Positions 3,147 through 59,450 of a stretch of DNA of 64,000 bases are shown here, one piece after another. Each line of letters starts with the position of its first letter. Within the stretch, counting starts at the first letter, position 1. Source of the DNA: Gammaproteobacteria bacterium (GTDB lineage Bacteria; Pseudomonadota; Gammaproteobacteria; CBDBNL01; JAAOII01); the NCBI GenBank assembly GCA_965207705.1, contig OZ242292.1:1637276-1701275 (forward strand), given 5' to 3'. A model generated the notes under the pieces. It was not told the origin of the DNA, ran no database searches, and saw only the letters and a program-made list of their open reading frames with translations. A program made the translations under genes and the position numbers.

Positions 3147-3234
3147 CTCTCATAAATAATGTGCGGAGGCACAAGGTGCATGGGGACGCATACAAGCATA
3201 TATAGATTAAGTATTTTTGCTATATAATAACCAC

Positions 3235-4518
3235 ATGCAATTAAAAGCTAATTCTCATATTGACGACCTAAGCAAATATGTCGCCGATATCGCTTCAGCT
3301 GCTCGCACTGCGGCAGCAATTATGGCAGCTGCCCCTACAGCGCAAAAAAATCATGCTCTACTCATAGCGGCTGACCTACTTGAAAAACAACGCAATAATG
3401 TTCTTGCTGCCAATAGCAAGGATATGGATAATGCCCAAAGTAACAATCTCGCTACGCCATTGTTAGAGCGTCTGGCTTTAAATGATGAAACCATTAATTC
3501 CATGATAACTTCGCTTAAGCAGGTTGCATCCTTGGCTGACCCTATTGGCGCAATCAGCGAAATGAAGTACCTGCCAAGCGGCATAAGAGTTGGCAAGATG
3601 AGGGTTCCGCTTGGAGTTGTCGGCATTATTTATGAGTCGCGTCCTAATGTTACCACTGATGCCGCTTCGCTGTGTTTGAAGTCAGGTAATGCCTGTATTC
3701 TACGTGGCGGCTCTGAAGCAATTAATTCCAACATGGCAATAGCGGAGATTATGCAAAATGCCTTGACTAAGGCAGGCCTTCCAGCGGCAGCAGCTACTCA
3801 GGTGCAGTCCACTGACCGCGCTATTATTTCGCATTTAATTTCCACTACAGATTATTTGGATGTCCTAATACCGCGCGGTGGCAAAGGACTTATTGAAAAA
3901 ATTAGCAGCGAGTCGCAGGTGAATGTTATCAAACATCTTGATGGCAACTGCCACGTGTATGTTGATAAGGACGCCAATTTAGAAATGGCGTTGAAGATAT
4001 CAGTAAACGCCAAGACCAGACGTTATGGAGTGTGCAATGCTATGGAGAGTTTGTTGGTGCATAAGCAAGTTGCCGCAGATTTTCTGCCACAGCTGGCGGG
4101 TGAATTGCAGCAGCATAAAGTTGAATTACGCGGCTGTCCGCGCGCTTGCCAGATATTGGCAAATATTAATCAGGCAACTGAGGATGATTGGTCTGAGGAA
4201 TACCTGGCTCCTATATTATCAATAAAAGTGGTAGATGATCTTAGTGCGGCTATTACGCATATTAATCAATACTCCTCGCATCACACAGATGCAATAATCA
4301 CTGATATGCATCCCAGTGGTGAGTTATTTATAAGAGGAGTGGATTCAAGCTCAGTTATGTGGAACGCCTCAACATCTTTTGCCGATGGTTTTGAATATGG
4401 TCTCGGCGCTGAGGTGGGAATTTCCACCGATAAGTTTCATGCGCGCGGACCAGTTGGTTTGGAAGGGCTAACCTGCCAGAAATTCGTAGTGTTAGGCACG
4501 GGCGAAACCCGCAACTAA
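3235..4518 (+). CDS. proA: gamma-glutamyl phosphate reductase ProA
   Basis: Aldehyde dehydrogenase-fold protein with ProA-typical segments ([39 protein letters not shown], catalytic Cys region [11 protein letters not shown]). The ORF track starts at a TTG at 3217; the ATG at 3235 is the more likely start. Confidence 0.93.
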
Positions 4519-4583
4519 TCATCTAGCTGGGGATGGCGCATACACATCCTTATATTTGGCATTAATTTTTTATTCGTATACAC

Positions 4584-4611
4584 TTGACATTAATTATAAA
4601 GGTGGTATAAT
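4584..4611 (+). promoter_or_regulatory. near-consensus sigma70 promoter (TTGACA-N16-TATAAT) upstream of GLUG lipoprotein paralog 1
   Basis: Perfect -35 TTGACA at 4584-4589 and perfect -10 TATAAT at 4606-4611 with a 16 nt spacer, about 90 nt upstream of the ORF start. Confidence 0.6.
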
Positions 4612-4703
4612 TACTTGTGTTAGTGTAATTGTCACTAATAAGTGACGGTTGACTTATATTGTTTTACAGGTTGGTGAAATAGATAAGTAGATAACGAATC
4701 ACA

Positions 4704-6179
4704 TTGAGCTATGTTATGTATAATCTTTTTAGAAAGACGAATGTCTTAGGACGTTGCGTGTTTAATGGGGATGCCACTCAGGTAGAACAAACTACCTCAA
4801 CTAACCTTTATATTAACTGCTACATAAGAATCAGGCGATATATACTTTTTCTTGTTACCCCTATAATTCTCTTCTCTTTAATCTCTTGTACCTTAGATGT
4901 AGCTAGCACTGATGATGAGTCGCCAACATCACCTCCCTCCAGCTCTAGTAGTGTTACTGCCAAAGGGTTGAGTTCTAATTATGTAAGCATATCCTGGGAT
5001 AGCGTCTTGGGTGCCACATACTATCAAGTATATAGCAGCACAGGGTTATTAGTTGCCACTGTTTTCCTTCCTGTCACTAATTATATTGTCACAGGTCTTT
5101 TGCCCAATACTGAATACATCTACCATGTAAGAGCATGTAATGTATCGGGCTGTTCAGATTTGACCAGCGTCTCCGCAACTACTGAGACCCCACCCATTAT
5201 CAATGGTACCGCTGAAGTTCCGCCCATCATCGATGTTACCGCGGAAGTTCCACCTGTCATTAATGTTACTGCTGAAGTTTCGCCTGTCATTAATGTTACT
5301 GCTGAAGTTCCAACTATCATCAGCAATGCCGCTGAACTTGCGGCTATTGGCACTAATAGCTCCACTTTATCTGGCGACTATATTCTAACTGGGAATATAG
5401 ACCTATCCACGATATCCAATTGGCGACCCATTGGCGATAACCCATCTAACGGATTTACTGGCAGTTTTGATGGTAATGGCTATAGCATAAGCGGGCTAAG
5501 TAGTTCGGGTTATGAATATGCCGGTTTGTTTGGCTATGTAAAAGACGCCTATATAAGTAATATTGGAGTTATAGCTGGCAATATATCCTCTTCTAATACT
5601 TTCGCTTCTTCAGCAGGAGGATTAGTTGGCTATGCTTATTATAGTGATATTAGCAACTCTTATGCAGTAGTTACGGACGATATATCCGCTTATGATGGAG
5701 GAGGGTTGGTTGGCTATGCTTATTATAGTGATATTAGCAACTCTTATGCAATGGTTGCGGATGATATATCTGCTTATGATAATTATGGTTCTTCGGCAGG
5801 AGGGTTGGTTGGCAAATTTAATGATAGTAAGATTAGTAATTCTTATGCAGTAGTTGCAGGTGATATATCTGCTTCTGATGATTACGGTTCTTTGGCGGGA
5901 GGGTTGATTGGCTATTTTGTTTACAGCTTTATATCAGTGGATTACGTTAATAAGGGCGCTCCAGTTAGTAATTCTTATTACAGCGCTAGCCGTGAATATT
6001 CGCAAGGGAGTTTTAGTAACTCTTTTGGAACTTATCAGACAGTTGATGAACTGCGCGCCTTAACTGCTGTGTCTACTGGCTGGGATGGGGCTATCTGGAA
6101 TTTTGGCACTGATGCCGACCTGCCAATGTTGGTTGCTACTCCTCTTACTGTGCCTTTGCCAAGTATTTTCCATGAATAG
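4704..6179 (+). CDS. surface lipoprotein with an FN3-like domain, five 10-aa tandem repeats and GLUG-motif beta-helix repeats (paralog 1 of 3)
   Basis: Internal lipoprotein signal (RIRRYILFLVTPIILFSLISC lipobox) at aa about 45-63. An FN3-like segment is followed by TAEVPPIINV x5. Then comes the conserved PTIISNAAELAAI...YILTGNIDLS...WRPIG...FTGSFDGNGYSISGL module and repeated GGLVGYAYYSDISNSYAVV (GLUG-type) units. The true start is unclear: no ATG, GTG or TTG lies immediately before the signal peptide. Confidence 0.75.
   Translation: MSYVMYNLFRKTNVLGRCVFNGDATQVEQTTSTNLYINCYIRIRRYILFLVTPIILFSLISCTLDVASTDDESPTSPPSSSSSVTAKGLSSNYVSISWDSVLGATYYQVYSSTGLLVATVFLPVTNYIVTGLLPNTEYIYHVRACNVSGCSDLTSVSATTETPPIINGTAEVPPIIDVTAEVPPVINVTAEVSPVINVTAEVPTIISNAAELAAIGTNSSTLSGDYILTGNIDLSTISNWRPIGDNPSNGFTGSFDGNGYSISGLSSSGYEYAGLFGYVKDAYISNIGVIAGNISSSNTFASSAGGLVGYAYYSDISNSYAVVTDDISAYDGGGLVGYAYYSDISNSYAMVADDISAYDNYGSSAGGLVGKFNDSKISNSYAVVAGDISASDDYGSLAGGLIGYFVYSFISVDYVNKGAPVSNSYYSASREYSQGSFSNSFGTYQTVDELRALTAVSTGWDGAIWNFGTDADLPMLVATPLTVPLPSIFHE
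5190..5339 (+). repeat. 5 tandem 30-bp repeats (encoding TAEVPPIINV-like decapeptides) inside GLUG paralog 1
   Basis: ccacccattatcaatggtaccgctgaagtt repeated with a few substitutions five times. The last unit diverges into the conserved IISNAAEL module, so it is a possible VNTR or contingency repeat. Confidence 0.85.
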
Positions 6180-6321
6180 AATTATTATGGGCGAGGAGCT
6201 ATTTGCATCCCCCTGGTTCACCTCATTCTAGCCCCACATATATAAGAGATTTGTTATATAATAGGGCTATGCAACTTAAAGCTGGTTCTATTAGTGTAAC
6301 CCTCACAAGTCCTTTCCGCCT

Positions 6322-7104
6322 TTGAAATCATTTGCTTTTTTGGGTGGCGCCTTTGACCCTATTCATATAGGGCACTTAAGAATACTCATTGCGCTTAATG
6401 AGATTTTTAACTACACCAAACTATTCATAATGCCTTATGCTGTTTCTCCCACCGCTAAGGCATCGATTGCAGATGTCCCATCAAGGTTGGCGATGGCGGA
6501 GTTGGCGCTGAAAGGTTATAATAATTTTGCGCTGGAAAAAATTGAGGCAGCTTATGCCAACCGGGGGGACATAATGCGGGGGGATACAATAGATGCGAAC
6601 ACCAAGGAGGTAACTGCCAATTACACCGTAGATACTTTAACCCAACTGCGCCAACTTCATGGCGATGATTGTCATTTTAGTTTTATAGTGGGTGATGATG
6701 TTTATGCATCTTTGGATGAGTGGCATAAGTGGCAATCGTTATTTAACCTAACTAATATTTTGGTTATTAATAGACACGATACCTCGCCGAGCGCTGCGGT
6801 GATAAGTAACGAAAAGGGGAAGATTATTAGCAAGCAGATTGATGCGACTAAGTTATCCAATCCTAATAATTCCTCTAAATACTCACAAGATATAAACCAA
6901 GTCCATCAAGTAAACGACATGCTTAATCCGTGTGATGAGTTTATTTCCTGCCCTAATGGCGGTATAATAAAGGTTAAACTACCTGTGCTTGATATTTCCT
7001 CTTCTGATATTCGCGCTAAATTAGCGGCTGGCGAAGATACTTCATTCTTAGTTCCGCCACAGGTGTTTGAATATATTAAAATCAATCAACTATATAGAGG
7101 ATAA
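6322..7104 (+). CDS. nadD: nicotinate-nucleotide adenylyltransferase NadD (TTG start, with about 45-aa insertion)
   Basis: The N-terminus AFLGGAFDPIHIGHL is the (H/T)xGH nucleotidyltransferase motif typical of NadD, and the C-terminal SSSDIR motif is present. The gene sits in the conserved nadD-rsfS neighbourhood. At 260 aa it is longer than the usual roughly 215 aa because of a low-complexity insert. Confidence 0.85.
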   Translation: MKSFAFLGGAFDPIHIGHLRILIALNEIFNYTKLFIMPYAVSPTAKASIADVPSRLAMAELALKGYNNFALEKIEAAYANRGDIMRGDTIDANTKEVTANYTVDTLTQLRQLHGDDCHFSFIVGDDVYASLDEWHKWQSLFNLTNILVINRHDTSPSAAVISNEKGKIISKQIDATKLSNPNNSSKYSQDINQVHQVNDMLNPCDEFISCPNGGIIKVKLPVLDISSSDIRAKLAAGEDTSFLVPPQVFEYIKINQLYRG

Positions 7105-7461
7105 ATGGAAGATAAAAAACAGGATATGAATAGCAAGGATATAGCAAGTTTCCTACTTGCGGCAATGGAGGATATAAAAGCGGATAATCCAGTTTGTATG
7201 GATGTGCGCGAAATAACTGATATAACCGATTATATGCTGGTGGCAGCTGGTTCTTCTAGTCGTCATATTAAGGGTATATGCAGTCGCATATTAGAGGCGG
7301 CAAAACAGAATAATGTGGAAGTGTTAGGAGTTGAGGGTGAAGATAGTAAAGAATGGGTGCTGATAGACCTAAACTCAGTTATAGCCCATGTTATGTCTTC
7401 TGAGCAAAGGGAACTTTATCAGCTGGAATCATTATGGAGCGTCCCGCCTGAAAGCAAGTGA
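7105..7461 (+). CDS. rsfS: ribosomal silencing factor RsfS (Iojap/YbeB)
   Basis: 118 aa with an Iojap-like core (MLVAAGSSSRHIKGICSRILEAAK ... WVLIDLNSVIAHVM) in the conserved position after nadD. Confidence 0.88.
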   Translation: MEDKKQDMNSKDIASFLLAAMEDIKADNPVCMDVREITDITDYMLVAAGSSSRHIKGICSRILEAAKQNNVEVLGVEGEDSKEWVLIDLNSVIAHVMSSEQRELYQLESLWSVPPESK

Positions 7462-7522
7462 TGAAAGCGGACGATTATGTAATAAGCTATATTTGACTTA
7501 TTCCCATATATAATTACTAATA

Positions 7523-9379
7523 ATGGCATTTTTTTCAAGCAAGGCGATAAGAAACCAGGTAGAGGAGAATAGAATCTTCCGCGTCCGTATAGGAGTGCTT
7601 AGTTTCATGCTTCTGATAATGTTTGTCGTAATATTGTCAAGAGTTGCCTACTTGCAATTAATCAACTATGATGAACAGATTAGTCGCGCTGAGGATTACC
7701 ACATAAGATTACGCACCATAACCCCAGAAAGAGGATTAGTGTATGATGCCAAAGGACGGTTATTGGCGGGCAACATATTATCTTATGCTTTATATATCCA
7801 TCCTCTTAAGATAAAGAACACAGAGCTTCTTATAAAGGGGATTGGAAAATTGCTCCCATTGAAAGAAGAAGCACTCCAAAGTTTTTATAAAGAGCTGGCA
7901 AATGTCAGAAGACGTAATCAGCTAATCTTGCTGCATGAAGTCCTTACCGAAGAAGAAATTGCCAAATTAATGGTTAATCGCTATAGATTATCTGGCATTG
8001 ATATTCAGCCACATTTTCAGAGATTTTATCCACAGGGGGAGTTAGTGAGTCATGCGATTGGTTACACAGGAATAGTATCGGATAAGGATAAGCAGAATAT
8101 TAATCTTGAATATTATAGCGACCTGAACAGAATAGGTAAATTAGGACTTGAACGTTTTTACGAAAAGGAGCTAAGAGGTGTTCCAGGTGTAGAAGAAGTT
8201 GGAGTTAATGCTTATGGCAGAGTAGTGGAAGTATATCGTCAGGAAAGACCACAAAGAGGGCTTGATATGTCGTTATGGCTTGATATGAGTATTCAAGAAT
8301 TTGTGTGGGATGTGCTTGGAGATAAAAAAGGGACGATTATAGTTTTGGATGCTAATAGCGGCGGGATTGTTTCAATGATTAGCAAACCATCTTATGATAA
8401 TAACAAGTTTGTTGCGGGGATTAGTCGCGCCGAGTTTGCTAAGCTGCGCAATCAGAAGTCCGCTCCATTACTTAACCGCGCAGTTGCTGGCAGATACCCG
8501 CCTGGCTCAACAATTAAGCCATTTTATTCCATCATTGCTTTGAGCAATGAAGTGGTTACACCTAAAGATACTATATTTGATGAAGGATATTTTAGCCCGC
8601 CTAATAGTGATATTGTATTTCGTAATTGGAAGAGATCGGGGCACGGCGAGGTTAATCTAAAACGGGCTATACGAGTGTCTTCAGACACATACTTTTATAA
8701 TCTGGCAGCCAACATGGGCTATGATTTGATGAGAGAAGGTCTTGAGAGATTTGGCTTTGGTAAAAAAAGCGCTCATGATATCCATGATGAATTAACCTTA
8801 CCCCTACCGACCGAACAATGGAAAATGGAAAAGTATAATCTTCCTTGGTTTCCTGGCGATACAGTTAATATGGGAATAGGGCAAGGGTATTTTGTATCCA
8901 CCCCTATGCAGCTGGCAGCTGCAACTTTAATTTTGGTTAACAAGGGCAAGAATATTAGACCGCGTCTGGTTAAACAAATTGCAACAGAGGCAATGTATGA
9001 AGGATCTCCAGATATGGCAATTAGTTCCGATGAAAAGAATTGGGACTTGGTCTTCGCAGGCATGGAGGAAGTTATGCATCACAAAGAAGGAACTGCAAGA
9101 AGAGCGGGCTATAATGCCGCCTATAGAATGGCTGGAAAAACAGGGACCTCGCAAGTGATATCTCTTAAAATTATTGAAGCAGCAAAAAGTGAGGGGCGGG
9201 AAATAAGGGAAGAGTGGGAAGACCATGCTTCGTTCACTGGATATGTGCCAGCAGATGACCCTAAGTATATAGTCACAGTTGTGTTAGAAAATGGCGGTTC
9301 TGGTTCTCGTGCTGCTCTGCTTGCAAGAGAAGTGACGGATTATCTAATATTAGGAGAAGATAAAATTGGGTTGAAATAA
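7523..9379 (+). CDS. mrdA: peptidoglycan D,D-transpeptidase PBP2 (MrdA)
   Basis: 618 aa with an N-terminal TM anchor, a PBP dimerisation domain and a transpeptidase domain (STIKP active-site serine motif, SSD, KTGT), located upstream of rodA. Confidence 0.92.
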   Translation: MAFFSSKAIRNQVEENRIFRVRIGVLSFMLLIMFVVILSRVAYLQLINYDEQISRAEDYHIRLRTITPERGLVYDAKGRLLAGNILSYALYIHPLKIKNTELLIKGIGKLLPLKEEALQSFYKELANVRRRNQLILLHEVLTEEEIAKLMVNRYRLSGIDIQPHFQRFYPQGELVSHAIGYTGIVSDKDKQNINLEYYSDLNRIGKLGLERFYEKELRGVPGVEEVGVNAYGRVVEVYRQERPQRGLDMSLWLDMSIQEFVWDVLGDKKGTIIVLDANSGGIVSMISKPSYDNNKFVAGISRAEFAKLRNQKSAPLLNRAVAGRYPPGSTIKPFYSIIALSNEVVTPKDTIFDEGYFSPPNSDIVFRNWKRSGHGEVNLKRAIRVSSDTYFYNLAANMGYDLMREGLERFGFGKKSAHDIHDELTLPLPTEQWKMEKYNLPWFPGDTVNMGIGQGYFVSTPMQLAAATLILVNKGKNIRPRLVKQIATEAMYEGSPDMAISSDEKNWDLVFAGMEEVMHHKEGTARRAGYNAAYRMAGKTGTSQVISLKIIEAAKSEGREIREEWEDHASFTGYVPADDPKYIVTVVLENGGSGSRAALLAREVTDYLILGEDKIGLK

Positions 9380-10544: not shown

Positions 10545-10876
10545 AATTCTGGTATGTTGCTTGAATTCACGACGCATTTCTGGTATGGTGTTTGAACGAA
10601 CGATGATGGTCTGTAGGGGCGGAGCTGCGCTCCGCCCGCAAAATGCATAATACTCGCGACAAACCATCAGCATGCTCGCATCGCTCTGCCCGCAAAATGC
10701 ATAACACTCGCGACAAACCCTCGCTATGCTCGCGACCTTCTTATATGTGATGCATAAATTCTTGCGACACCCGTTTGATATAATGCATAAATTCTTGCAA
10801 CACAGGTCTGTAGGGGCGGAGCTGTGCTCCGCCCGCAAAATGTATAATACTCGCGACAAACTCTCGGCATGCTCGC
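10545..10876. repeat. composite REP cluster: two full hairpin cores (10608-10660, 10802-10855), one core-less tail unit and a 27-bp tandem repeat (10549-10604)
   Basis: GGTCTGTAGGGGCGGAGCTGCGCTCCGCCCGCAAAATGCATAATACTCGCGACAAACC occurs twice, with a partial copy in between. Direct repeats CGACGCAATTCTGGTATGTTGCTTGAA and CGACGCATTTCTGGTATGGTGTTTGAA are also present. A 112-aa minus-strand ORF here is an artefact of the repeats. Confidence 0.85.
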
Positions 10877-10924: not shown

Positions 10925-12208
10925 ATGAATATAAGAACATTATCCAAAGTCCCTAGTATTGGAGTAGCGTATGCAAGTAACTCTTTTATAAACAGCCCAG
11001 TTATAAACAGCTCGTCTCAAGAATCAGCAAAATATTTTTTACAAAATCAATTACCAAATGCTGAGTATCATCTTATTCCTAAGTCAGAGCTTATCAAAAA
11101 TAAAAGTGTTTTTATTGCTGAGGTGCTAGGTGATAGCATGGAAAAATTTAATATATATAGCGGTGATGCTGTTTTATTCGAAAAAAATAAAAAAGTAGAA
11201 AATGGTGATATCGTAATAATGGAAATCCAGGGTAATTTATTAATTAAACAGTACAAAGAAACTAAAGAATACATACATATATATTCTCATGACAAAGATA
11301 AAGTTAATAAAATTAAAAAAGATAGAGTTAAAATTATTGGTAAAGTATTTAATATTATTGAGTTGGCAGAAAGAAAAGAAGAAACAGCGCAAATCCCTAA
11401 ACTCGTAACAAATCAAATTGTTCATAGCGAAGCAATTAAATTTATGAAACAGCTGCCAGAACATTCAATTGATTTGACAGTAACATCTCCCCCTTATGAT
11501 AATTTACGCAGCTATGATGGCTATAACTTTGATTTTGAAGGCATTGCAACAGAATTATTTAGAGTTACCAATAAAGGGGGTGTGTTGGTTTGGGTTGTGG
11601 GCGACAAAATAAAAAATGGAAGTAAAACATTAACCAGTTTCAGGCAGGCAATTACTTTTCAAGAACTGGGGTTTTGTGTGCATGATATCATGATATATAA
11701 GAAGAAAAATACACCATTCATGCGTTCTAACGGATACACTAACTGCTTTGAATTTATGCTGGTATTAGGTAAAGGGAAACCAAAAACATTTAATCCAATT
11801 AAAATCAAGACAGTTAGACAAGGGTTAGAGTTACTGACTCATAACAAAGGTCCTGATGGTATAAATAAAAAAACCTTGGCTATGCTAAATAGCAAGAAAA
11901 CCAAAACTAATATTTGGGAATATGCTGTTGGCTTACATGGATCAACTAGTGATAAAGAGGCGTTTCAACACCCAGCCATATTCCCCGAGCAATTGGCAGA
12001 GGATCATATATTATCTTGGAGTAAGCCAGGTGACCTAGTATTTGATCCAATGTGCGGTTCTGGGACAACTTGTAAAATGGCAGCTAAGCATAAAAGACGC
12101 TATTTGGGATGTGATATTTCTTATAAATATGTGGCAATAGCAAGGAATAGAATAAAGGTAGTGGAGGATGCTTTATCTTTGTTTGATGAATTGGATGGCC
12201 CTTCTTAA
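10925..12208 (+). CDS. fusion protein of an N-terminal LexA/UmuD-like S24 peptidase domain and a C-terminal beta-class DNA N4/N6 methyltransferase (orphan; SPPY motif suggests N4-cytosine or N6-adenine)
   Basis: aa about 60-150 carry the S24 signature (VLGDSMEKF...GDAVLF...NGDIVIMEIQGNLLIKQYK...VKIIGKVFNI, with Ser in GDSM and Lys in LIKQ). aa about 170-425 carry DNA methylase N-4/N-6 motifs in beta order: motif IV DLTVTSPPY, then HPAIFPEQL, then motif I FDPMCGSGTT. The gene is strongly AT-rich relative to its neighbours, and no restriction endonuclease gene is adjacent. Confidence 0.7.
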   Translation: MNIRTLSKVPSIGVAYASNSFINSPVINSSSQESAKYFLQNQLPNAEYHLIPKSELIKNKSVFIAEVLGDSMEKFNIYSGDAVLFEKNKKVENGDIVIMEIQGNLLIKQYKETKEYIHIYSHDKDKVNKIKKDRVKIIGKVFNIIELAERKEETAQIPKLVTNQIVHSEAIKFMKQLPEHSIDLTVTSPPYDNLRSYDGYNFDFEGIATELFRVTNKGGVLVWVVGDKIKNGSKTLTSFRQAITFQELGFCVHDIMIYKKKNTPFMRSNGYTNCFEFMLVLGKGKPKTFNPIKIKTVRQGLELLTHNKGPDGINKKTLAMLNSKKTKTNIWEYAVGLHGSTSDKEAFQHPAIFPEQLAEDHILSWSKPGDLVFDPMCGSGTTCKMAAKHKRRYLGCDISYKYVAIARNRIKVVEDALSLFDELDGPS

Positions 12209-30557: not shown

Positions 30558-31474
30558 GACCCTAACTTAACCCTGCCAAGCTTTATATACAGTATGGTAA
30601 GGATTGAAATAATTAAGAATAATGCCGTGGAGGCACTGGCGCCATAACCGAACTTGGAAAAATCAAACATTTCAAGCTTGGCATAAACCGACATGCTCAT
30701 TGTTGCTTCATTGTTGGGAGTTAGCACATAAATCAAATCAAATATACGCAGTGAGTCCAAAGCGCGAAAAATTATTGCCACCATAAGTGGTTGTTTGATT
30801 AAAGGCAAGGTTATAAAGAAAAATCTTTTAATTGGGTGGATGCCGTCAACTTTCGCGGCTTCATACACTTCTCCAGGAAGCAATTGCAGAGCCGCCAAAG
30901 ATAACAATGTCATAAAGGGAGTGGTCTTCCAGACATCAGCTATTATGATAGCCACCATAGCTGTGTCTGGGGTTGCGGTCCAGGCAATTGGTTGGCTAAG
31001 AATACCAATTTGAATGAGAATATCATTAATTATTCCAAACTGGTCATTGAGCATCCAAGCCCACATCTTGGCGGATACTATTGTGGGAATTGCCCAGGGT
31101 ATGAGGATAGCAGCGCGCACGATAGCGCGTCCGCGAAATTGGACGTTGAGAGCCAGGGCGATTAGTAATCCTAAAACTGTTTCAATTGATACGGAAATAA
31201 CTGTAAAGTACAGAGTGTTCCAGACGGCTCGCCACCAGGAACTATTGGCGAATAAACCCCTTAGTTCGCCATTTTGATTAAGATGTAAGTAATTCTTAAA
31301 CCACACAAAATTATAATCGTCTTGTCCGAACTCCAATAAATCTGTGAAGCTAAAAAAGATAGTGCGTAGCAGGGGCCATGCCGCAGTAAAAGCTAGAACA
31401 GCTAACATGGGAGCCAAAAACAGCCATGCGGTCTTAACTCTCTGCTGTGTAAAAATACTTTGCTGACTCGGCAT
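30554..31474 (-). CDS. sugar ABC transporter permease (MalF/UgpA-like)
   Basis: 6-TM permease with an EAA loop (EAAKVDGIHPIKRFF), overlapping the downstream permease gene by 4 nt. Confidence 0.82.
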   Translation of the reverse strand: MPSQQSIFTQQRVKTAWLFLAPMLAVLAFTAAWPLLRTIFFSFTDLLEFGQDDYNFVWFKNYLHLNQNGELRGLFANSSWWRAVWNTLYFTVISVSIETVLGLLIALALNVQFRGRAIVRAAILIPWAIPTIVSAKMWAWMLNDQFGIINDILIQIGILSQPIAWTATPDTAMVAIIIADVWKTTPFMTLLSLAALQLLPGEVYEAAKVDGIHPIKRFFFITLPLIKQPLMVAIIFRALDSLRIFDLIYVLTPNNEATMSMSVYAKLEMFDFSKFGYGASASTALFLIISILTILYIKLGRVKLGS

Positions 31475-31496
31475 GTTTTACATTATACCTTACTCG

Positions 31497-31535
31497 TTAA
31501 ACAAAAAAGGGAAGTCAATGACTTCCCTTTTAAAA
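31497..31535 (-). terminator. Rho-independent terminator/attenuator downstream of the sugar-binding protein gene (minus strand)
   Basis: AAAAGGGAAGTC-AAT-GACTTCCCTTTT perfect 12-bp stem. On the minus strand it is followed by a UUUUUUGUUU tract. An adjacent 8-bp repeat AAATATTT x3 lies at 31533-31560. Confidence 0.65.
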
Positions 31536-31570
31536 TATTTAAATATTTAAATATTTAAAATGAACTAAGA

Positions 31571-32857
31571 TTACTGACCCCAGCCACTTCCTCTAAGCTC
31601 CTCAAGTTTTCTTTCCAAATTCTGCAAACTCGCTTCTGCGGATATGCTTTTGGTTAGAACATTATGAACCGCAGTCCAGAACTCCTTGGAAACCTCATTA
31701 TATTGTTTCTTAGTTGGAGCAGAAGGCCGTGGTACTGCTTGTTGTAAAACATCCAACCAATCAGCAAAGAATGGAACTGCTTCCAATACTTCTGCATCAC
31801 TATATAAAGAGGGAATTGTTGGCATCTTAGAACCGCGAATCGCATTGAACTTTTGCACTTCCTCGCTGGCGAGATACTTAGCAAGCTCAATGGCTTCATC
31901 TTGTTTCTTAGAATATGTGGATACTGCCAGATTCCAGCCACCCAAAGTAGCTGCTGAACCAGCGCCACCTGTAGGCAACGGAGCTACGCCAATTTTACCT
32001 TTAACTTTAGAGTCCTCGGCATTTTGTCCCAAAGAATAAGCATAAGGCCAATTGCGCATGAACACTGCATCGCCTCTTTGCCAGAGTCCGCGAGCTTCTT
32101 CTTCCTGGTAGGTTGTAACCCCTTGCGGAGATATACCACCAACCCAGCTGGAAGCCAATCTTAGAGCTCTTGCCGCATCGGGATTATTTACCGAGATGCT
32201 GCCATCCGCTTCAATGATTTGACCACCACCAGATGATTTTATCCATTCCAGGGCATCGCAGGTGAGTCCTTCATAAGCATTGCCTTGAAAGACAAAACCA
32301 TACATACCGTCATTTCCTTCATCTCTTTCGGAGTTCATTATGTACTCCGCAGTGTAAGTAAGGTCAAGCCAGGTCTGAGGAACTGGTTCATCGTATTTAT
32401 CCAACAAATCCTTACGATAATAAAGCGCTGGAGCATCGGTGAAAAAAGGCAAAGCAACTAAACGGCCATTTGATGTTTGCGATTGAATAATCGCGGGAAA
32501 GTGTTCTCCTGCAATATCGCTGGCAGCATCACTAAGGTCTACTAAATGATTGTCTATTTGTGGCGCCCATATAACATCTACAACATATATATCTATGTCA
32601 GAAGATTTAGAGTTCAGCCAAATTTTGAACTGGCCAAATATATCTGTAGTGGAAGCAGGCATTTGAACAATTTCAACTTCTTGTCCGGTTTCCTCTTGGT
32701 AGTCATCAAGAACTTCCCTCATTAATTCTATATCTTGCCCTACACTGCCATAAGCAATATGCAGAGTATCTGCCCCTTTGTTAGCACAGGACACTAGAAA
32801 TAACGAAGCAATAGTCAATAATGAAACCATTATGTTTGATAATTTAAAATATCTCAT
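31571..32857 (-). CDS. sugar ABC transporter periplasmic substrate-binding protein (SBP family 1)
   Basis: 428 aa with a lipoprotein-type signal (LFLVSCANKG) and a maltose/trehalose/sucrose-type SBP fold. It is the first gene of the minus-strand sugar operon. Confidence 0.8.
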   Translation of the reverse strand: MRYFKLSNIMVSLLTIASLFLVSCANKGADTLHIAYGSVGQDIELMREVLDDYQEETGQEVEIVQMPASTTDIFGQFKIWLNSKSSDIDIYVVDVIWAPQIDNHLVDLSDAASDIAGEHFPAIIQSQTSNGRLVALPFFTDAPALYYRKDLLDKYDEPVPQTWLDLTYTAEYIMNSERDEGNDGMYGFVFQGNAYEGLTCDALEWIKSSGGGQIIEADGSISVNNPDAARALRLASSWVGGISPQGVTTYQEEEARGLWQRGDAVFMRNWPYAYSLGQNAEDSKVKGKIGVAPLPTGGAGSAATLGGWNLAVSTYSKKQDEAIELAKYLASEEVQKFNAIRGSKMPTIPSLYSDAEVLEAVPFFADWLDVLQQAVPRPSAPTKKQYNEVSKEFWTAVHNVLTKSISAEASLQNLERKLEELRGSGWGQ

Positions 32858-32970
32858 AGTTTTGATTTATCTCTTGTTTAATAATAATAGTCGTTATTAT
32901 AAACTTAATTTAGTTATATGCTCCTTTCCACAAAATAATCGCAAAATAATTAAGATATAATAACCTACTT

Positions 32971-33576
32971 ATGGGAAAGAACGAACTAGAGAATAGAGAT
33001 AACTGGCAAACAGAAAGCGGCGCTAATGCACTAAATCTAGAAGAAATTTTCTTCTTAATATTTAAGAAAGAATTTCAAAAACCCGCCAATCTGAATTTTC
33101 AAATAAGAAAGAACCCCAAAGAATTTAAGAATATCTATAAAAATGTTAAACTCCCAAAAGGTGTTATTAAAGAAATATATAATCCTTCTAAAGATTACTT
33201 ACATGGCATCGCAATAGACTTTGCCATAGATAACCTACTAACGAATAAAACCTTATATATTGAAATAAAAAGACAAGATGGTTGGGTTGAGGGCATGCCT
33301 TCAAGTGCTGGCAGAGGGAACGCCCATGAAAGACTTTGTAAGTTTTTTACACCGGGATTACTAGGTGTTTTAAGAAAAGAAGGCAAGATAGATAACCTAC
33401 ACCTGCCTTTCTGGGCTGTTTTTGCTGGCAATATAACAAGAGATCCTAAAAGGGTAAGAGAGATAACTCTCTGGTTCCAAGGATATAATGATAATTTTTT
33501 TATGTGGCGTGATACAAAGAATAGTACCAAGCTTATCAATCATTTTAATAAAAAGTTAAAGCCCTTGCTCAGATAA
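32971..33576 (+). CDS. type II restriction endonuclease, EcoRI/MunI family (PD-(D/E)XK)
   Basis: 201 aa with the motif IDFAID ... LYIEIKRQDGWVEG ... SAGRGNAHER, which matches the catalytic D...E-x-K and the downstream GNAxER signature shared by EcoRI, RsrI and MunI. It converges on, and overlaps the 3' end of, an adenine methyltransferase gene, and lies in a very AT-rich island. Confidence 0.7.
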   Translation: MGKNELENRDNWQTESGANALNLEEIFFLIFKKEFQKPANLNFQIRKNPKEFKNIYKNVKLPKGVIKEIYNPSKDYLHGIAIDFAIDNLLTNKTLYIEIKRQDGWVEGMPSSAGRGNAHERLCKFFTPGLLGVLRKEGKIDNLHLPFWAVFAGNITRDPKRVREITLWFQGYNDNFFMWRDTKNSTKLINHFNKKLKPLLR

Positions 33577-34236
33577 TATATCTAGCCCCCAAGCGTCCCA
33601 GTCATCGTGCTCTTCTCTAGCAAATAATTCTATTTTATTTTGATTGGGGAATATTCTATTAATATTGTTTCTAACTTCAGCGGGCTTAGCGCTATGCTTG
33701 GTGCGAGGGACGTTTATTAACTGCTTAACATTTCTAGCTGCCCTTGTCGGTATTTTACCTCTCTTAAATAACAAACATAATTCACAATACGACATAGTAT
33801 ATTGTCCGGGATTATGCATCATCTTATTCCATACAAAGGCAACTGTTTTATACTTAAAGCCCCAAGCATTTCCTAACTTTATTGCTTGTTCTAAATGGGG
33901 GTTGGTAGTCCACATAAATAATATACAATTATCATCTGCGATGCCTCTCACTGGTATTTCCATCATCATATCCAATTTCATTGTAGGATATTTAAAACTG
34001 GCAGAACTCACGAATATTTTCTTCTGATAATCAGAGTTGATTTTCTTATTTAACGTATTATCAAATTGTAGCTTGCCATTATAATCCCAAGGAGGATCGG
34101 CATAAATAACTTCAAATTTTTTATTAGGGAATTTAGGGAACAATAAACCTTCATCATGCAAAGGGTTGGATTTCCTCTTTTCATGTTGTATAGGGTTATA
34201 TAAAGAATACCCTGAAATACTATTGCTGCTTGCCAT
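33556..34236 (-). CDS. MT-A70-family N6-adenine DNA methyltransferase (cognate MTase of the adjacent REase)
   Basis: 226 aa with the catalytic DPPW motif (VIYADPPWDY) and conserved MT-A70 blocks (ILFMWTT, AIKLGNAWGFKYKTVAFVWNK, KHSAKPAEV). Confidence 0.8.
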   Translation of the reverse strand: MASSNSISGYSLYNPIQHEKRKSNPLHDEGLLFPKFPNKKFEVIYADPPWDYNGKLQFDNTLNKKINSDYQKKIFVSSASFKYPTMKLDMMMEIPVRGIADDNCILFMWTTNPHLEQAIKLGNAWGFKYKTVAFVWNKMMHNPGQYTMSYCELCLLFKRGKIPTRAARNVKQLINVPRTKHSAKPAEVRNNINRIFPNQNKIELFAREEHDDWDAWGLDILSEQGL

Positions 34237-34366
34237 ATAAAATCAATCTTAATCTAATTATAAATTGTAAAGGAATATTCTAAATAATTCCAAGTAATTC
34301 TAAATAAATATTAATGCTTATAGGTAAAAATTAAAGTAGTATATAATTCCCTAATTATTTTAATAA

Positions 34367-34747
34367 ATGAATAAAATACTATCTAATCAACTGAACGTAA
34401 TAAAGCTTGTTTTGATAATGAGCATCTCTTATGCTGTTGTTGCGCTTGTTTTGGGACTAATAAAAGATATAACCATCGGTTTATCATTTTTATCTGGCGG
34501 CATTATTTATGCCGTTGCGATATTGATTTATGGTTTGATGTATTTTTCGCGGCGTGGTGCAATATCATCGCAACAGGTGCTGGTTTCCTTGGCATGGGGC
34601 ATCCTAATGAAATATTTAATCATTATTGTTTGTTGCTCACTCCTTTTGATATATACCCCCGTGCATAGTGGAGCATTTTTCAGCGCTCTGGCAATTGCTC
34701 ATTTAGCTTATATTGGGTTTATATCCCTGTATAATCGTTGGAATTAA
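34367..34747 (+). CDS. atpI: ATP synthase protein I (AtpI), small membrane protein preceding atpB
   Basis: 126 aa, 4 predicted TM helices, in the canonical position upstream of atpB. Confidence 0.6.
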   Translation: MNKILSNQLNVIKLVLIMSISYAVVALVLGLIKDITIGLSFLSGGIIYAVAILIYGLMYFSRRGAISSQQVLVSLAWGILMKYLIIIVCCSLLLIYTPVHSGAFFSALAIAHLAYIGFISLYNRWN

Positions 34748-34784
34748 AGCTATATTAAAATAATTATATATTGAAACAGGATAA

Positions 34785-35621
<837 letters not shown>

Positions 35622-35732
35622 AAACATTAGAAAGAGTAAAAACATCTTATAATAGGATAGAATGAAATAAAAATTTATGGGTAGAAATAACCCAAAGTTT
35701 ACAAGTTTATTAATTATTACAATTTGAGGTAA

Positions 35733-38647: not shown

Positions 38648-39547
38648 ATGGCAGTAGGCAAAGAAATAAAGACCAAAATCCGCAGTATCCAAAGTACGCG
38701 CAAAATTACGAGTGCTATGGAGCTGGTGGCAGCCAGTAAAATGAAAAAGGTGCAGGAACGGATGGCGGCAACTCGTCCCTATAGCGCTAATATGATTGCG
38801 ATTATCCATCAGATAGCCGCATCCTCGTCAGAGTATCACCACTCTTTTATGGATGAAAGAGAAGTTAAGAATGTCGGCATGATAATTGTATCCAGTGACC
38901 GTGGTCTATGTGGTGGCCTTAACTACGCTTTGTTTAAGAAAACCCTACTCAGCGAAAAAGAATGGGAAGAAAAAGGCGTCAATACTAAGATGGCGGTGTA
39001 CGGCAGCAAAGGAGGTAATTTTTTCAAAGGGATGGGTAAGCACATGGAAGCGGCGCAAAGCAAATTGAGTGACCATGCCACTATGGATGAACTTGGTGGA
39101 GTGCTCAAGGTTATGTTAGACCTCTACCGCGATAAAAGCATAGATGCGTTGTACTTGGGATTTAACCGCTTTGTCAACACTATGGTGCAAGCCCCTACTT
39201 TACAACAGCTTTTACCCTTACCTTCGTATAAAGAGGAAGTTGCTGACGGTAAATACGAGATGCCTCAGCAAATACTACAAAGGAAGTATGCTTGGGACTA
39301 TCTTTATGAGCCAGATGCAAAAGAATTATTGGACAAGTTATTGGAAAGATATTGCGAATCTTCTTTATACCAAGCGGTGGTAGAAAATCTATCCTGTGAA
39401 CAGGCGGCAAGAATGATAGCAATGAAAAGCGCAACTGATAATGCTGGAGAGATTATTGAGGAATTACAACTCATCTATAATAAAGCTCGTCAAGCGGTTA
39501 TTACTCAAGAAATATCTGAGATAGTTGCAGGTTCTGAAGCACTTTAA
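38648..39547 (+). CDS. atpG: F0F1 ATP synthase subunit gamma
   Basis: 299 aa gamma-subunit family protein (N-terminal MAVGKEIKTKIRSIQSTRKITSAMELVAASKM). The expected atpD and atpC do not follow. Confidence 0.95.
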   Translation: MAVGKEIKTKIRSIQSTRKITSAMELVAASKMKKVQERMAATRPYSANMIAIIHQIAASSSEYHHSFMDEREVKNVGMIIVSSDRGLCGGLNYALFKKTLLSEKEWEEKGVNTKMAVYGSKGGNFFKGMGKHMEAAQSKLSDHATMDELGGVLKVMLDLYRDKSIDALYLGFNRFVNTMVQAPTLQQLLPLPSYKEEVADGKYEMPQQILQRKYAWDYLYEPDAKELLDKLLERYCESSLYQAVVENLSCEQAARMIAMKSATDNAGEIIEELQLIYNKARQAVITQEISEIVAGSEAL

Positions 39548-39658: not shown

Positions 39659-40537
39659 ATGGCTGATATATCATTTATAGGGTTAGGGGTTATGGGATTC
39701 CCGATGGCATCCCATCTTGCCAAAGCGGGGCATAGAGTTACAGTTTATAATCGCACTCCTGCCAAAGCTCAAGCATGGTTGGAACAGCATAAAGATTATT
39801 CCGTTGCTATGGCATCTACTCCAGCAGAGGCGGCGCGCGACAAAGATTTTGTCATGTCATGCGTTTCCAAAGACGAGGACTTATTTGAGGTCACCTTAGG
39901 AGCACAAGCAGCTTTCCATACAATGAAAAAGAGAGCAGTTTTTATTGACCACACCACCGCTTCGGCAGATGCGGCGCGCAAATTGGCGAGTGAAGCACAA
40001 AGAAGGGGATTTAATTTTATGGATGCGCCTGTTTCTGGCGGTCAGTCCGGCGCCGAAAATGGAATATTATCCATCATGTGTGGCGCGGAGAAGAGTGTTT
40101 TTGAACGTTGTTTGCCAGTTATGAGCGCTTATGGCAAGAGCATCCAGCTTATAGGGGATATCGGCTGCGGACAGTTAACCAAGATGGCTAATCAGCTATG
40201 TGTTTTGGGTTTAATTCAATCACTGGCAGAGGGTTTAACTTTTGCTAAGGCGGCTGGGCTTGACACAGAAAAGGTATTTGCTGCGGTATCGCAGGGAGCT
40301 TCGTGCTCTTGGCAAATGGAGAACCGTTGGAAAACTATGGCGGAAAACAAATTTGATTTGGGTTTTACCGTAAACCTGATGCGCAAGGATATTGGCATAG
40401 CTCTTGACGAAGCAAAAAAATTAGGTGTTACCTTACCAGTAGCCAAACAGGTGGACGACTTTTACGAGGAGCTACAAAAGATGGGTGACGGAGATTTGGA
40501 TACTTCATCATTAATCAAACTATTGAAAAAGTGTTAG
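39659..40537 (+). CDS. NAD(P)-dependent 3-hydroxyisobutyrate dehydrogenase / 2-hydroxy-3-oxopropionate reductase family oxidoreductase
   Basis: N-terminal Rossmann motif ISFIGLGVMGFPMASHL. It is a member of the 6-phosphogluconate dehydrogenase-like HIBADH family, with catalytic Lys region DAPVSGG. Confidence 0.85.
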   Translation: MADISFIGLGVMGFPMASHLAKAGHRVTVYNRTPAKAQAWLEQHKDYSVAMASTPAEAARDKDFVMSCVSKDEDLFEVTLGAQAAFHTMKKRAVFIDHTTASADAARKLASEAQRRGFNFMDAPVSGGQSGAENGILSIMCGAEKSVFERCLPVMSAYGKSIQLIGDIGCGQLTKMANQLCVLGLIQSLAEGLTFAKAAGLDTEKVFAAVSQGASCSWQMENRWKTMAENKFDLGFTVNLMRKDIGIALDEAKKLGVTLPVAKQVDDFYEELQKMGDGDLDTSSLIKLLKKC

Positions 40538-40581
40538 TGAAAAAATGCTAATAAAGTTTTATACACATTTTTATACACACT

Positions 40582-40659
<78 letters not shown>

Positions 40660-40664
40660 ATTTT

Positions 40665-42026
40665 ATGAGGATATGTTTTGCTGGCATATTCTTCATTCTA
40701 TCCACATCATTTTCTGCGAGCGCTGTTTCTGCTTTGCCTGATATAAGCGCTGGCACGCGCATATCTTCCGAGCAAGAAAAGCAGCTTGGACGCAATTGGC
40801 TTAGAAGCAACTACAGGATATTGAAGGCAGTGAATGATATTGCGCTGCAATCTTATGTTGAAGAATTAGTGCGCAGAATTAAGCAAGGACCAGAACTCTC
40901 CAAGTATGATATGAATATCGTCCTTATGGATAACCCCAATTTTAATGCTTTTGCTGTTCCTGGCGGGGTTATGGGTATTAATCTTGGCGTGCTGCAATTA
41001 GCGGAAAGCGAAGGAGAATTTGCCTCAGTTGTAGCGCATGAGTTGGCGCATCTTAGCCAAGACCATTTTATTAGACGGGTGGAAAGGGCAAGGACTACAA
41101 ACAGCGCCGCGCTTGTTTCAGTATTCACTGGCATTGGCTTGTTGCTGAGTGGAAATATTCCGCTGGCAGCGCTTGCCATTTATGGTGGAGCTAATTATCA
41201 ATTAGAATCATATCTTAGTTTATCGCGTCGTTTTGAACGAGAGGCGGATAGTCAGGCAACGGTATTTTTACGCAATAGTAATTTTGATTTATCCGAGATG
41301 GCAAATATGTTCTCCCGCTTAAACGCCCTTAGCGGTAATCAAGAGATTGCTGGATATGCCAGCACTCACCCCCTTACTATAGACAGAGTTAACTATGCAT
41401 TATTAAGAGCAGGGCAGCAACGTAGTCAAAAGTTCTATACTTCTGGCGATTATAGTTTTGTTCGGCTGCGCGCTCGGGCTATATTAGGAACTCTGCCGAT
41501 TATCTCAGGTTATGGAGCGGATGGCGATTATACCCGAGTTTTACAATTACAAAAACGTAATAAACACCTGCAAGCCAGCAAGATATTGAAAGCGCTGTAT
41601 AAGGATTACCCATTTTCGGTGATTATCTACTGCTCCTATCTTGAATCTATGATTGCATCAGGACAAACCGAAGAGGCAATCGCCAGTATAAATTACAAAT
41701 TACGCTATTCTTCTCGTGAAGGGTTTTTATATTATTTTCTTGCTCTTGCTTATGCCAAGCAGAAAGATTACACCAAGGCAGCGGCACAGATGGAAAAGTT
41801 GGCTTCCGCCACACCAGAGAATCCTGATGTGTGGCTTAAACTTTCTTTTTACTACAATAAATTAGAGGATAAATTTAATATATTTCGTTCCCGTTCTGTC
41901 TATCAACTATTAATTGGGGCTAAAAGAGAAATGCGCGAAAGCATACAGTTAGCCAAAGAAGAGGCAAAAGATGATGAGATTCTATTAGTTCAGTTGGATA
42001 ATCTGCACCAACGATTAATTAATTAG
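40665..42026 (+). CDS. bepA: BepA-like periplasmic M48 metalloprotease with TPR domain
   Basis: A signal peptide, the HEXXH motif (VVAHELAHLSQDH) with downstream Glu, and C-terminal TPR-like helical repeats. The ORF-track start at 40545 runs through the tRNA, so the ATG at 40665 is preferred. Confidence 0.8.
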   Translation: MRICFAGIFFILSTSFSASAVSALPDISAGTRISSEQEKQLGRNWLRSNYRILKAVNDIALQSYVEELVRRIKQGPELSKYDMNIVLMDNPNFNAFAVPGGVMGINLGVLQLAESEGEFASVVAHELAHLSQDHFIRRVERARTTNSAALVSVFTGIGLLLSGNIPLAALAIYGGANYQLESYLSLSRRFEREADSQATVFLRNSNFDLSEMANMFSRLNALSGNQEIAGYASTHPLTIDRVNYALLRAGQQRSQKFYTSGDYSFVRLRARAILGTLPIISGYGADGDYTRVLQLQKRNKHLQASKILKALYKDYPFSVIIYCSYLESMIASGQTEEAIASINYKLRYSSREGFLYYFLALAYAKQKDYTKAAAQMEKLASATPENPDVWLKLSFYYNKLEDKFNIFRSRSVYQLLIGAKREMRESIQLAKEEAKDDEILLVQLDNLHQRLIN

Positions 42027-48605: not shown

Positions 48606-48848
48606 CGGGCGTAGCAAGAATTTGGACGTCATGCAGGAGTTCATCGCGAGCATGGTTATGATTTATCGCAAGAGTTAGGCATTTTGCGGGCGGAGCGCAG
48701 CTCCGCCCCTACAGACCTATATACCAAGAATTTAAGTATTATACCAAGGGTGTTTTGCAAGAATTCTGATGGTTTGTTGCGAGAGTTAGGCATTTTGCGG
48801 GCGGAGCGCAGCTCCGCCCCTACAGACCTATATACCAAGAATTTTTAA
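48606..48848. repeat. tandem pair of REP elements (reverse orientation) with shared flanking modules
   Basis: GCGAGAGTTAGGCATTTTGCGGGCGGAGCGCAGCTCCGCCCCTACAGACCTATATACCAAGAATTT occurs twice about 120 bp apart, immediately downstream of the dprA stop. Confidence 0.85.
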
Positions 48849-59317: not shown

Positions 59318-59450
59318 ATGCATTTTGAATTCTTGGAACGATGGTCTGTAGGGGCGGAGCTGCGCTCCGCCCGCAAGGTGCTCAATACTTGCGACACGCT
59401 ATCCCCATGCTCGCGATAACACTATTGCCATGCTCCGCCCGCAAAATGCC
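59318..59450. repeat. REP element (full core + tail, and a second core-less tail)
   Basis: GGTCTGTAGGGGCGGAGCTGCGCTCCGCCCGCAAGGTGCTCAATACTTGCGACACGCTATCCCCATGCTCGCGA followed by TGCTCCGCCCGCAAAATGCC. Its 3' end supplies the -35 TTGACT of the downstream promoter. Confidence 0.85.

Follow-up and report, generated by a model that had tools for sequence, protein, structure and literature searches.

The window analysed here is a 64,000-nucleotide (nt) stretch of an uncultured gammaproteobacterial genome (contig OZ242292.1 of assembly GCA_965207705.1, positions 1,637,276 to 1,701,275; coordinates below count from its first letter), and the subject of this report is a compact pair of restriction-modification (R-M) genes within it. 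An earlier note, made from the sequence alone, had flagged positions 32860-34360 as two such genes, converging between a sugar locus and the atp operon, overlapping by about 20 nt at their 3' ends and lacking a visible controller (C) protein gene. This description proved accurate. Two full-length open reading frames (ORFs), encoding a restriction endonuclease (R) and a DNA methyltransferase (MTase; M), fill the interval tail to tail with a 21-nt overlap, and the flanking genes agree with the proposed location (Table 1). The gaps to the outer neighbours are short, just 113 nt ahead of the R start and 130 nt between the M start and atpI. A terminator scan found no terminator-like hairpin between R and M, and an Rfam scan of 32500-34900 returned no RNA family. 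No ORF in the window encodes a C protein, and tblastn of 31471-35700 with the two C-protein types described below gave no match.

R matched the Pfam profile PF11407 (RestrictionMunI) at 3e-58 and 197.2 bits (curated cutoff, 25 bits), with residues 9-194 covering profile positions 8-191 of 193, and the PADLOC model REase_II at 2e-64. Against the Protein Data Bank (PDB), residues 1-200 aligned with MunI itself (1D02; E=9e-62) at 52% identity with just two short gaps. The residue numbering of R is that of MunI, D83, E98 and K100 are all in place (the latter two within E98-I-K100), and the segment S112-A-G-R-G-N-A-H-E-R121 is identical to that of MunI. In the MunI structure of Deibert et al. from 1999, D83, E98 and K100 reportedly form the PD-(D/E)XK active site, while the outer G:C pair is said to be read by R115 and the inner AATT by the GNAHER segment. 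These three catalytic residues and G114-R121 were invariant in an alignment of 38 MunI-family members, in which D was entered at MunI position 83, where the PDB chain has A83 (the D83A crystallisation mutant); the other 37 sequences were natural. The earlier note had read the same D...E-I-K and SAGRGNAHER motifs, had assigned R to an EcoRI/MunI family and had stated that a lack of similarity in profile searches would speak against this. The motifs and the MunI half of the assignment stood, whereas the EcoRI half did not: R had no match to the EcoRI Pfam family at E<=1, and no EcoRI chain appeared among the PDB matches at E<=10. Judged by its sequence, R is a member of the MunI family and shares with EcoRI only the GNAxER motif. 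No NCBIfam model matched R or M, and homologues of R are already labelled 'MunI family type II restriction endonuclease' by NCBI and JGI.

M, in turn, matched Pfam PF05063 (MT-A70) at 4e-21 and 76.1 bits (cutoff, 23.9 bits), with residues 41-218 on profile positions 1-171 of 172, and PADLOC MTase_II at 7e-62. Its matches among PDB structures were ciliate MT-A70 DNA N6-methyladenine (m6A) methyltransferases and METTL3. The DPPW motif lies at residues 47-50, N-terminal to the remaining fold, and a conserved ELFAR...W..WG segment lies C-terminal. Across 23 M sequences, 75 columns including D47-P-P-W50 were invariant, and the homologues were full-length and 59-70% identical. From this motif order, the predicted fold is circularly permuted, with the catalytic DPPW (motif IV) ahead of the remaining fold. 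The MT-A70 family is described as derived from bacterial M.MunI-like MTases (PMC7145601, PMC4738411), and Iyer et al. 2016 placed M.MunI among the circularly permuted N6A-MTases and related the Ime4/MT-A70 clade to that group (PMC4738411). Because the literature puts M.MunI at the root of MT-A70, an MT-A70-type partner is canonical for MunI and not unusual. The DPPW/MT-A70 class given earlier for M was right; it had been presented as a departure from EcoRI, but MunI itself has such an MTase.

The genomic history of the pair could be read from related strains. Nine collinear sister-genome loci (ENA ERZ25069759, -60, -62 and -64) were retrieved by exact match to the ATP synthase c subunit, and six of them (L003, L004, L005, L006, L007 and L010) carry an empty site, with about 120 bp from the sugar-binding-protein gene to atpI. 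The left junction falls after 32910 (directly behind ...AAACTTAATT), as determined by BLAST and direct reading. The right junction was placed by eye at 34339/34340, where the shared TATATAATT starts, and by BLAST at 34351/34352; BLAST-level homology to the empty sites resumes at 34352-34359. At the empty sites, 48 bp (ACTCACATCA...GAGAATAA in L007) are present that the window lacks. An island of about 1.43 kb (1.43-1.44) has thus been substituted for 48 bp of divergent promoter region, and its limits, 32911 to 34339/34351, come close to the interval flagged earlier. Comparison with the empty sites revealed no target duplication at the junctions, and no convincing transposon-like ends were found: the sole terminal inverted repeat is an AT-rich pair of 28 nt that is 79% complementary, and the region contains 62 pairs of this kind. 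No integrase or transposase linked to the island occurs among the window ORFs.

Since sister strains have empty sites, recent horizontal acquisition, proposed earlier from base composition, is directly confirmed, and a recent insertion of the cassette in one strain is supported. In the classification of Furuta et al. 2010 (PMC2853133), the polymorphism is a substitution or a simple insertion. The compositional contrast itself was also real, with 32.8% GC over 32911-34351 and 42.0% in the remainder of the window; in 400-nt windows, GC was 26-38% over 32600-34600 and 38-50% in the flanks. GC at third codon positions was 0.31 for R and 0.34 for M, close to that of the adjacent genes (sugar-binding-protein gene, 0.34; atpI, 0.35), so the AT contrast is less extreme at the codon level. 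The left junction follows an AATT, and some empty sites read CAATTA there; insertion mediated by a restriction break was considered and dropped as unsupported.

Table 1. Features of the R-M locus and its junctions in window coordinates (aa, amino acids)
Feature	Position	Strand	Basis
R gene, MunI-family type IIP restriction endonuclease, 201 aa	32971..33576	+	PF11407, PDB 1D02, PADLOC REase_II
M gene, MT-A70 / M.MunI-like (beta-class, circularly permuted) N6-adenine DNA methyltransferase, 226 aa	33556..34236	-	PF05063, PADLOC MTase_II
Tail-to-tail R/M 3' overlap, 21 nt	33556..33576	.	ORF coordinates and terminator scan
Inserted island: R-M cassette with its own short flanks	32911..34351	.	Empty-site homology and GC
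TATAAT box, 10 nt before R start codon; putative -10 of a weak promoter	32956..32961	+	Direct reading
Promoter-like site for M, TTTAGA-16-TATAAT, 10/12 matches, ending 21 nt upstream of M start	34257..34284	-	Consensus scan
TATAAT box of the resident atpI upstream region, kept at the right junction; island DNA now upstream	34342..34347	+	Junction comparison

A second copy of the cassette was found in a sister genome (ERZ25069760) at an unrelated locus, L001 (9960-10928 of contig_1, 1.18 Mb), 92.5% identical over window positions 33303-34277. This copy is a ruin. Its M gene carries 5-nt and 1-nt deletions that cause two frameshifts, leaving a gene call of just 138 aa, and its R gene has lost about 110 N-terminal codons and reads SAGRWNAHER (G116W). 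The neighbouring genes encode cadherin-like giant proteins, two rve-family insertion sequence transposases and a D12-class MTase. Immediately beyond the break is a GC-rich repeat of a dispersed kind. The decayed copy shows that this cassette both moves and degenerates within the lineage.

To place the architecture, we compiled 83 loci, comprising those of the three nearest R homologues (L091-L093) and 80 metagenomic ones retrieved with the R alignment (L094-L173). An MT-A70 gene stood tail-to-tail with R in 69/83 and in tandem in 2/83, and no M was seen in the remaining 12, several of which lie on contigs too short to tell. About half of the 69 convergent pairs overlap at their 3' ends, with -20/-21 nt recurring. 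Where at least 260 nt of sequence were available upstream of R (n=74), a small ORF lay directly upstream of R in 44 loci, typically 14 nt off and on the same strand; the other 30 (about 40%), including the three closest relatives, were C-less. The small ORFs fall into two sequence types, '...GVHRTYIGMIERAEKNITL...' in most loci and '...TQSHISKVEAGQRRIDI...' in about 8 of L094-L173. Both match HTH_3 (1e-18 and 8e-13), the signature of R-M controller proteins. The presence of two types hints that a single R-M family contains two or more incompatibility groups of controllers.

The window's system is thus a common C-less sub-architecture, and its convergence, overlap and lack of a C gene are none of them new. 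A new variant, marked by the C-less layout, the 21-nt overlap or the MT-A70 partner, was considered and rejected, because all three are common in the family or canonical for MunI. The protein collection holds at least 2,537 R homologues, and the exact R and M proteins are both already in public databases. L091-L093 encode R proteins 62-68% and M proteins 65-71% identical to those of the window, at 27-35% GC. Scanning species-representative genomes with R yielded no relative, so that neither a cultured host nor a donor could be named. Searches of sequenced plasmids returned no copy of the module, and its sole match among phages was one unannotated fragment at 51% identity.

Expression signals are of a tentative kind. 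No recognisable Shine-Dalgarno sequence precedes R, and the -35 region of the TATAAT box upstream of R is poor, so the consensus scan left this box uncalled. Read as a -10 element, it would give a near-leaderless R mRNA. For M, the scan proposed the putative site in Table 1. Since there is neither a C protein nor a terminator, transcripts would necessarily run head-on into the partner gene, and this could bias expression towards M. Antisense and convergent-promoter control has been documented for EcoRI and Eco29kI (PMC3874152).

Counting CAATTG sites for signs of avoidance, a check suggested in the earlier note, revealed no depletion: the window holds 32 against about 25 expected (Markov-3 and Markov-4), and pooled sister loci without the island hold 51 against 40. 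Inside the island there are 0 such sites. CATATG (an NdeI-type site), in contrast, occurs 0 times in the window against 13-23 expected and 0 times in pooled sister loci (among L002-L009) against 37, and TCGA, GGCC, GATC, CCGG, CTAG and GTAC are found at 0.11-0.51 of Markov expectation. Depletion of these sites but not of CAATTG indicates a lineage long shaped by R-M specificities other than CAATTG, and the undepleted CAATTG count fits recent or sporadic acquisition.

We read the locus as an intact MunI-family type IIP R-M system, most probably CAATTG-specific and acquired as a bare cassette, and put the probability of this reading at roughly 0.78. CAATTG, also the site of the MunI isoschizomer MfeI, is the most likely target because the DNA-contacting segment of R is identical to that of MunI. 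In the mechanism we propose, a bare 1.4-kb cassette would have entered one strain between the sugar-binding-protein gene and atpI, replacing 48 bp. Using S-adenosylmethionine, M would place an N6-methyl group on one adenine per strand of its palindrome, most probably CAATTG. R would act as a PD-(D/E)XK homodimer (D83/E98/K100) that cuts unmethylated sites, expectedly as C^AATTG with 5'-AATT ends. Its targets would be incoming phage or plasmid DNA and, should methylation lapse, also the host chromosome, which may lend the cassette addiction-like stability. Lacking a C protein, the pair would presumably be expressed from two facing weak constitutive AT-rich promoters, with each transcript entering the other gene.

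Several points weigh against this interpretation. The predicted specificity draws on identical contact residues and an overall identity of 52%, and the sequence would not reveal a missense change that inactivates R. The link of M to M.MunI comes from the literature and from its conserved adjacency to MunI-family R genes. Promoter-like sites in the region number 11 against a shuffled expectation of 8.8, which is not above chance. Finally, some 32 CAATTG sites per 64 kb leave the host wholly dependent on M.

The uncertainty about specificity has a concrete form, namely a MunI-fold system that recognizes another NAATTN sequence or a shorter AATT. Within the EcoRI/MunI/MluCI group the central AATT readout is common and the outer base pair differs, and according to a review the group is possibly mosaic (PMC4081073), which matters for an R only 52% identical to MunI. 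Yet S112-R121 is identical to MunI, R115 included, G114-R121 is invariant in the family and the EcoRI Pfam family went unmatched; we consider another specificity improbable. About equally improbable, in our judgement, is a decayed system, in which R has been inactivated by a missense change or goes unexpressed and M persists as a de facto orphan methyltransferase nearing loss. The L001 copy, with its twice-frameshifted M and truncated R, is just such a ruin in a sister genome, and the missing Shine-Dalgarno sequence and poor -35 of R point the same way. Both window ORFs, however, are full length and keep every family-invariant residue, and the three closest relatives share the compact intact layout.

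The remaining alternative concerns purpose and not identity, and is compatible with an intact, CAATTG-specific system: the unit may be mainly a selfish addiction cassette, maintained by post-segregational killing, with phage defence secondary. R-M units are known to act as mobile selfish elements (PMC2853133, PMC3874152). What we see here is a bare two-gene unit that lacks mobility genes and occurs in one of the several strains making up the population, adjoined by essential genes and accompanied by a decayed copy elsewhere. None of this separates addiction from defence, however, and type IIP systems typically do both, so we hold a mainly selfish role to be a minority possibility, although a more credible one than altered specificity or decay.

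Comparison with known systems places the cassette closest to MunI of Mycoplasma sp. (R.MunI, M.MunI and C.MunI; C^AATTG). The two endonucleases (201 vs 202 aa) are alignable end to end and have the same catalytic triad and an identical SAGRGNAHER, and both are paired with an M.MunI-like/MT-A70 MTase. The systems differ in host (a mollicute vs a gammaproteobacterial metagenome-assembled genome (MAG)), in the status of the specificity, which is predicted for the window, and in control, as C.MunI has been experimentally characterised (PMC2632904) whereas the window system has no C gene. L091-L093, which are MAG pairs labelled 'MunI family' and 'MT-A70 family', are likewise convergent, C-less, AT-rich modules between housekeeping genes, but they lie in other hosts at other insertion sites; even the nearest is only about 68% identical, and none qualifies as a close donor. 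EcoRI and RsrI (G^AATTC) resemble R in their alpha-branch PD-(D/E)XK fold, a GNAxER motif reading the inner AATT and 5'-AATT overhangs (in part PMC4081073). EcoRI differs in its length (277 aa), its gamma-class MTase, its tandem gene orientation and its regulation by reverse promoters and antisense RNA (PMC3874152). With the mobile R-M units of Furuta, Abe & Kobayashi 2010 (PMC2853133), the locus shares a cassette in one strain facing collinear empty sites in others, and rearrangements nearby in sisters (an inverted atpI, and an R-M-like pair between atpI and atpB). The island differs in lacking a long target duplication, long inverted repeats like those of transposons, and any linked integrase or transposase.

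On the left, the cassette is flanked on the minus strand by an SBP_bac_1 binding protein gene (31571-32857), two permeases, an alpha-amylase-family enzyme, a MalK-type ATPase, a PfkB kinase and a glucokinase; on the right, atpI (34367-34747) is followed by atpB, atpE, atpF, atpH, atpA and atpG. These names derive from Pfam labels on collinear relatives and from ORF sizes. The atp cluster ends after atpG (gamma subunit, 38648-39547), as it does in all sister loci, and a NAD-binding dehydrogenase (39659-40537) and an M48 peptidase follow; atpD and atpC (beta and epsilon subunits) must therefore be encoded elsewhere. A tRNA-Arg(CCG) called by ARAGORN at 40582-40659 lies wholly within a 493-aa ORF (40545-42026; M48 peptidase in relatives) and is probably a false positive.

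The GC-rich repeat noted at L001 is a dispersed, hairpin-forming element of about 55 nt (…GGTTTGTCGCGAG…CTTGCGGGCGGAGC…GCTCCGCCCCTACAGA…) that resembles intergenic repeat families of the REP (repetitive extragenic palindrome) or MITE (miniature inverted-repeat transposable element) kind. It occurs in the window at 259-299, 10615-10668, 10683-10719, 10812-10861, 48763-48821, 59350-59381 and 59427-59444, as well as at L001 ~11100-11160, at L002 8405-8457 and at several rearrangement junctions.

The lineage that carries the window, gammaproteobacterial and uncultured, has genomes of about 1.8-2.2 Mb (sister chromosome, OZ242303.1) and is probably host-associated. One assembly, ERZ25069764 (L003, L005 and L007-L010), contains at least 6 contigs of 2x-24x coverage that encode an identical ATP synthase c subunit and differ in this region, indicating that many closely related strains co-exist in the sample. 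Two further kinds of change were seen near the MunI-type site. L006 carries about 6.2 kb between atpI and atpB (2820-8987 of ERZ25069760 contig_1, equivalent to window ~34771/34783), encoding a 1032-aa N6_N4_Mtase protein and a 1018-aa ResIII/DEAD helicase-nuclease-like protein. These two form another R-M pair, type III- or IIG-like, and only a few hundred bases separate it from the site of the MunI-type insertion. In L002 (8483-8879) and L008 (8472-8869), the atpI segment equivalent to window 34352-34748 is inverted, and the extra sequence beside it holds three GTTTTAATTCCA copies (one of them the atpI 3' end) and the GC-rich hairpin element. Given the inversion, atpB must be transcribed from a promoter of its own, and neither the position nor the orientation of atpI appears to be essential.

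The interval was thus seen in four states: with the MunI-type pair (window), with the MTase and helicase pair (L006), with an inverted atpI (L002 and L008), or empty (the others). We offer as speculation, which we think unlikely to hold, that co-existing strains of this lineage may gain, swap and lose different R-M cassettes, independently of a recombinase, at a hot spot reaching from the sugar-binding-protein gene past atpI to atpB, and that the C-less MunI subclade may time restriction solely by head-on overlapping transcription and a near-leaderless R mRNA.

As a single locus, the pair carries little weight: it is one more predicted CAATTG-type R-M system in a family that already counts thousands of metagenomic members. 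Taken as a set, filled, empty and decayed alleles, together with a nearby R-M-like insertion, within the same population make a clean natural example for following bare R-M cassettes as they spread and decay across co-existing strains, and for studying how C-less convergent systems spare new hosts.

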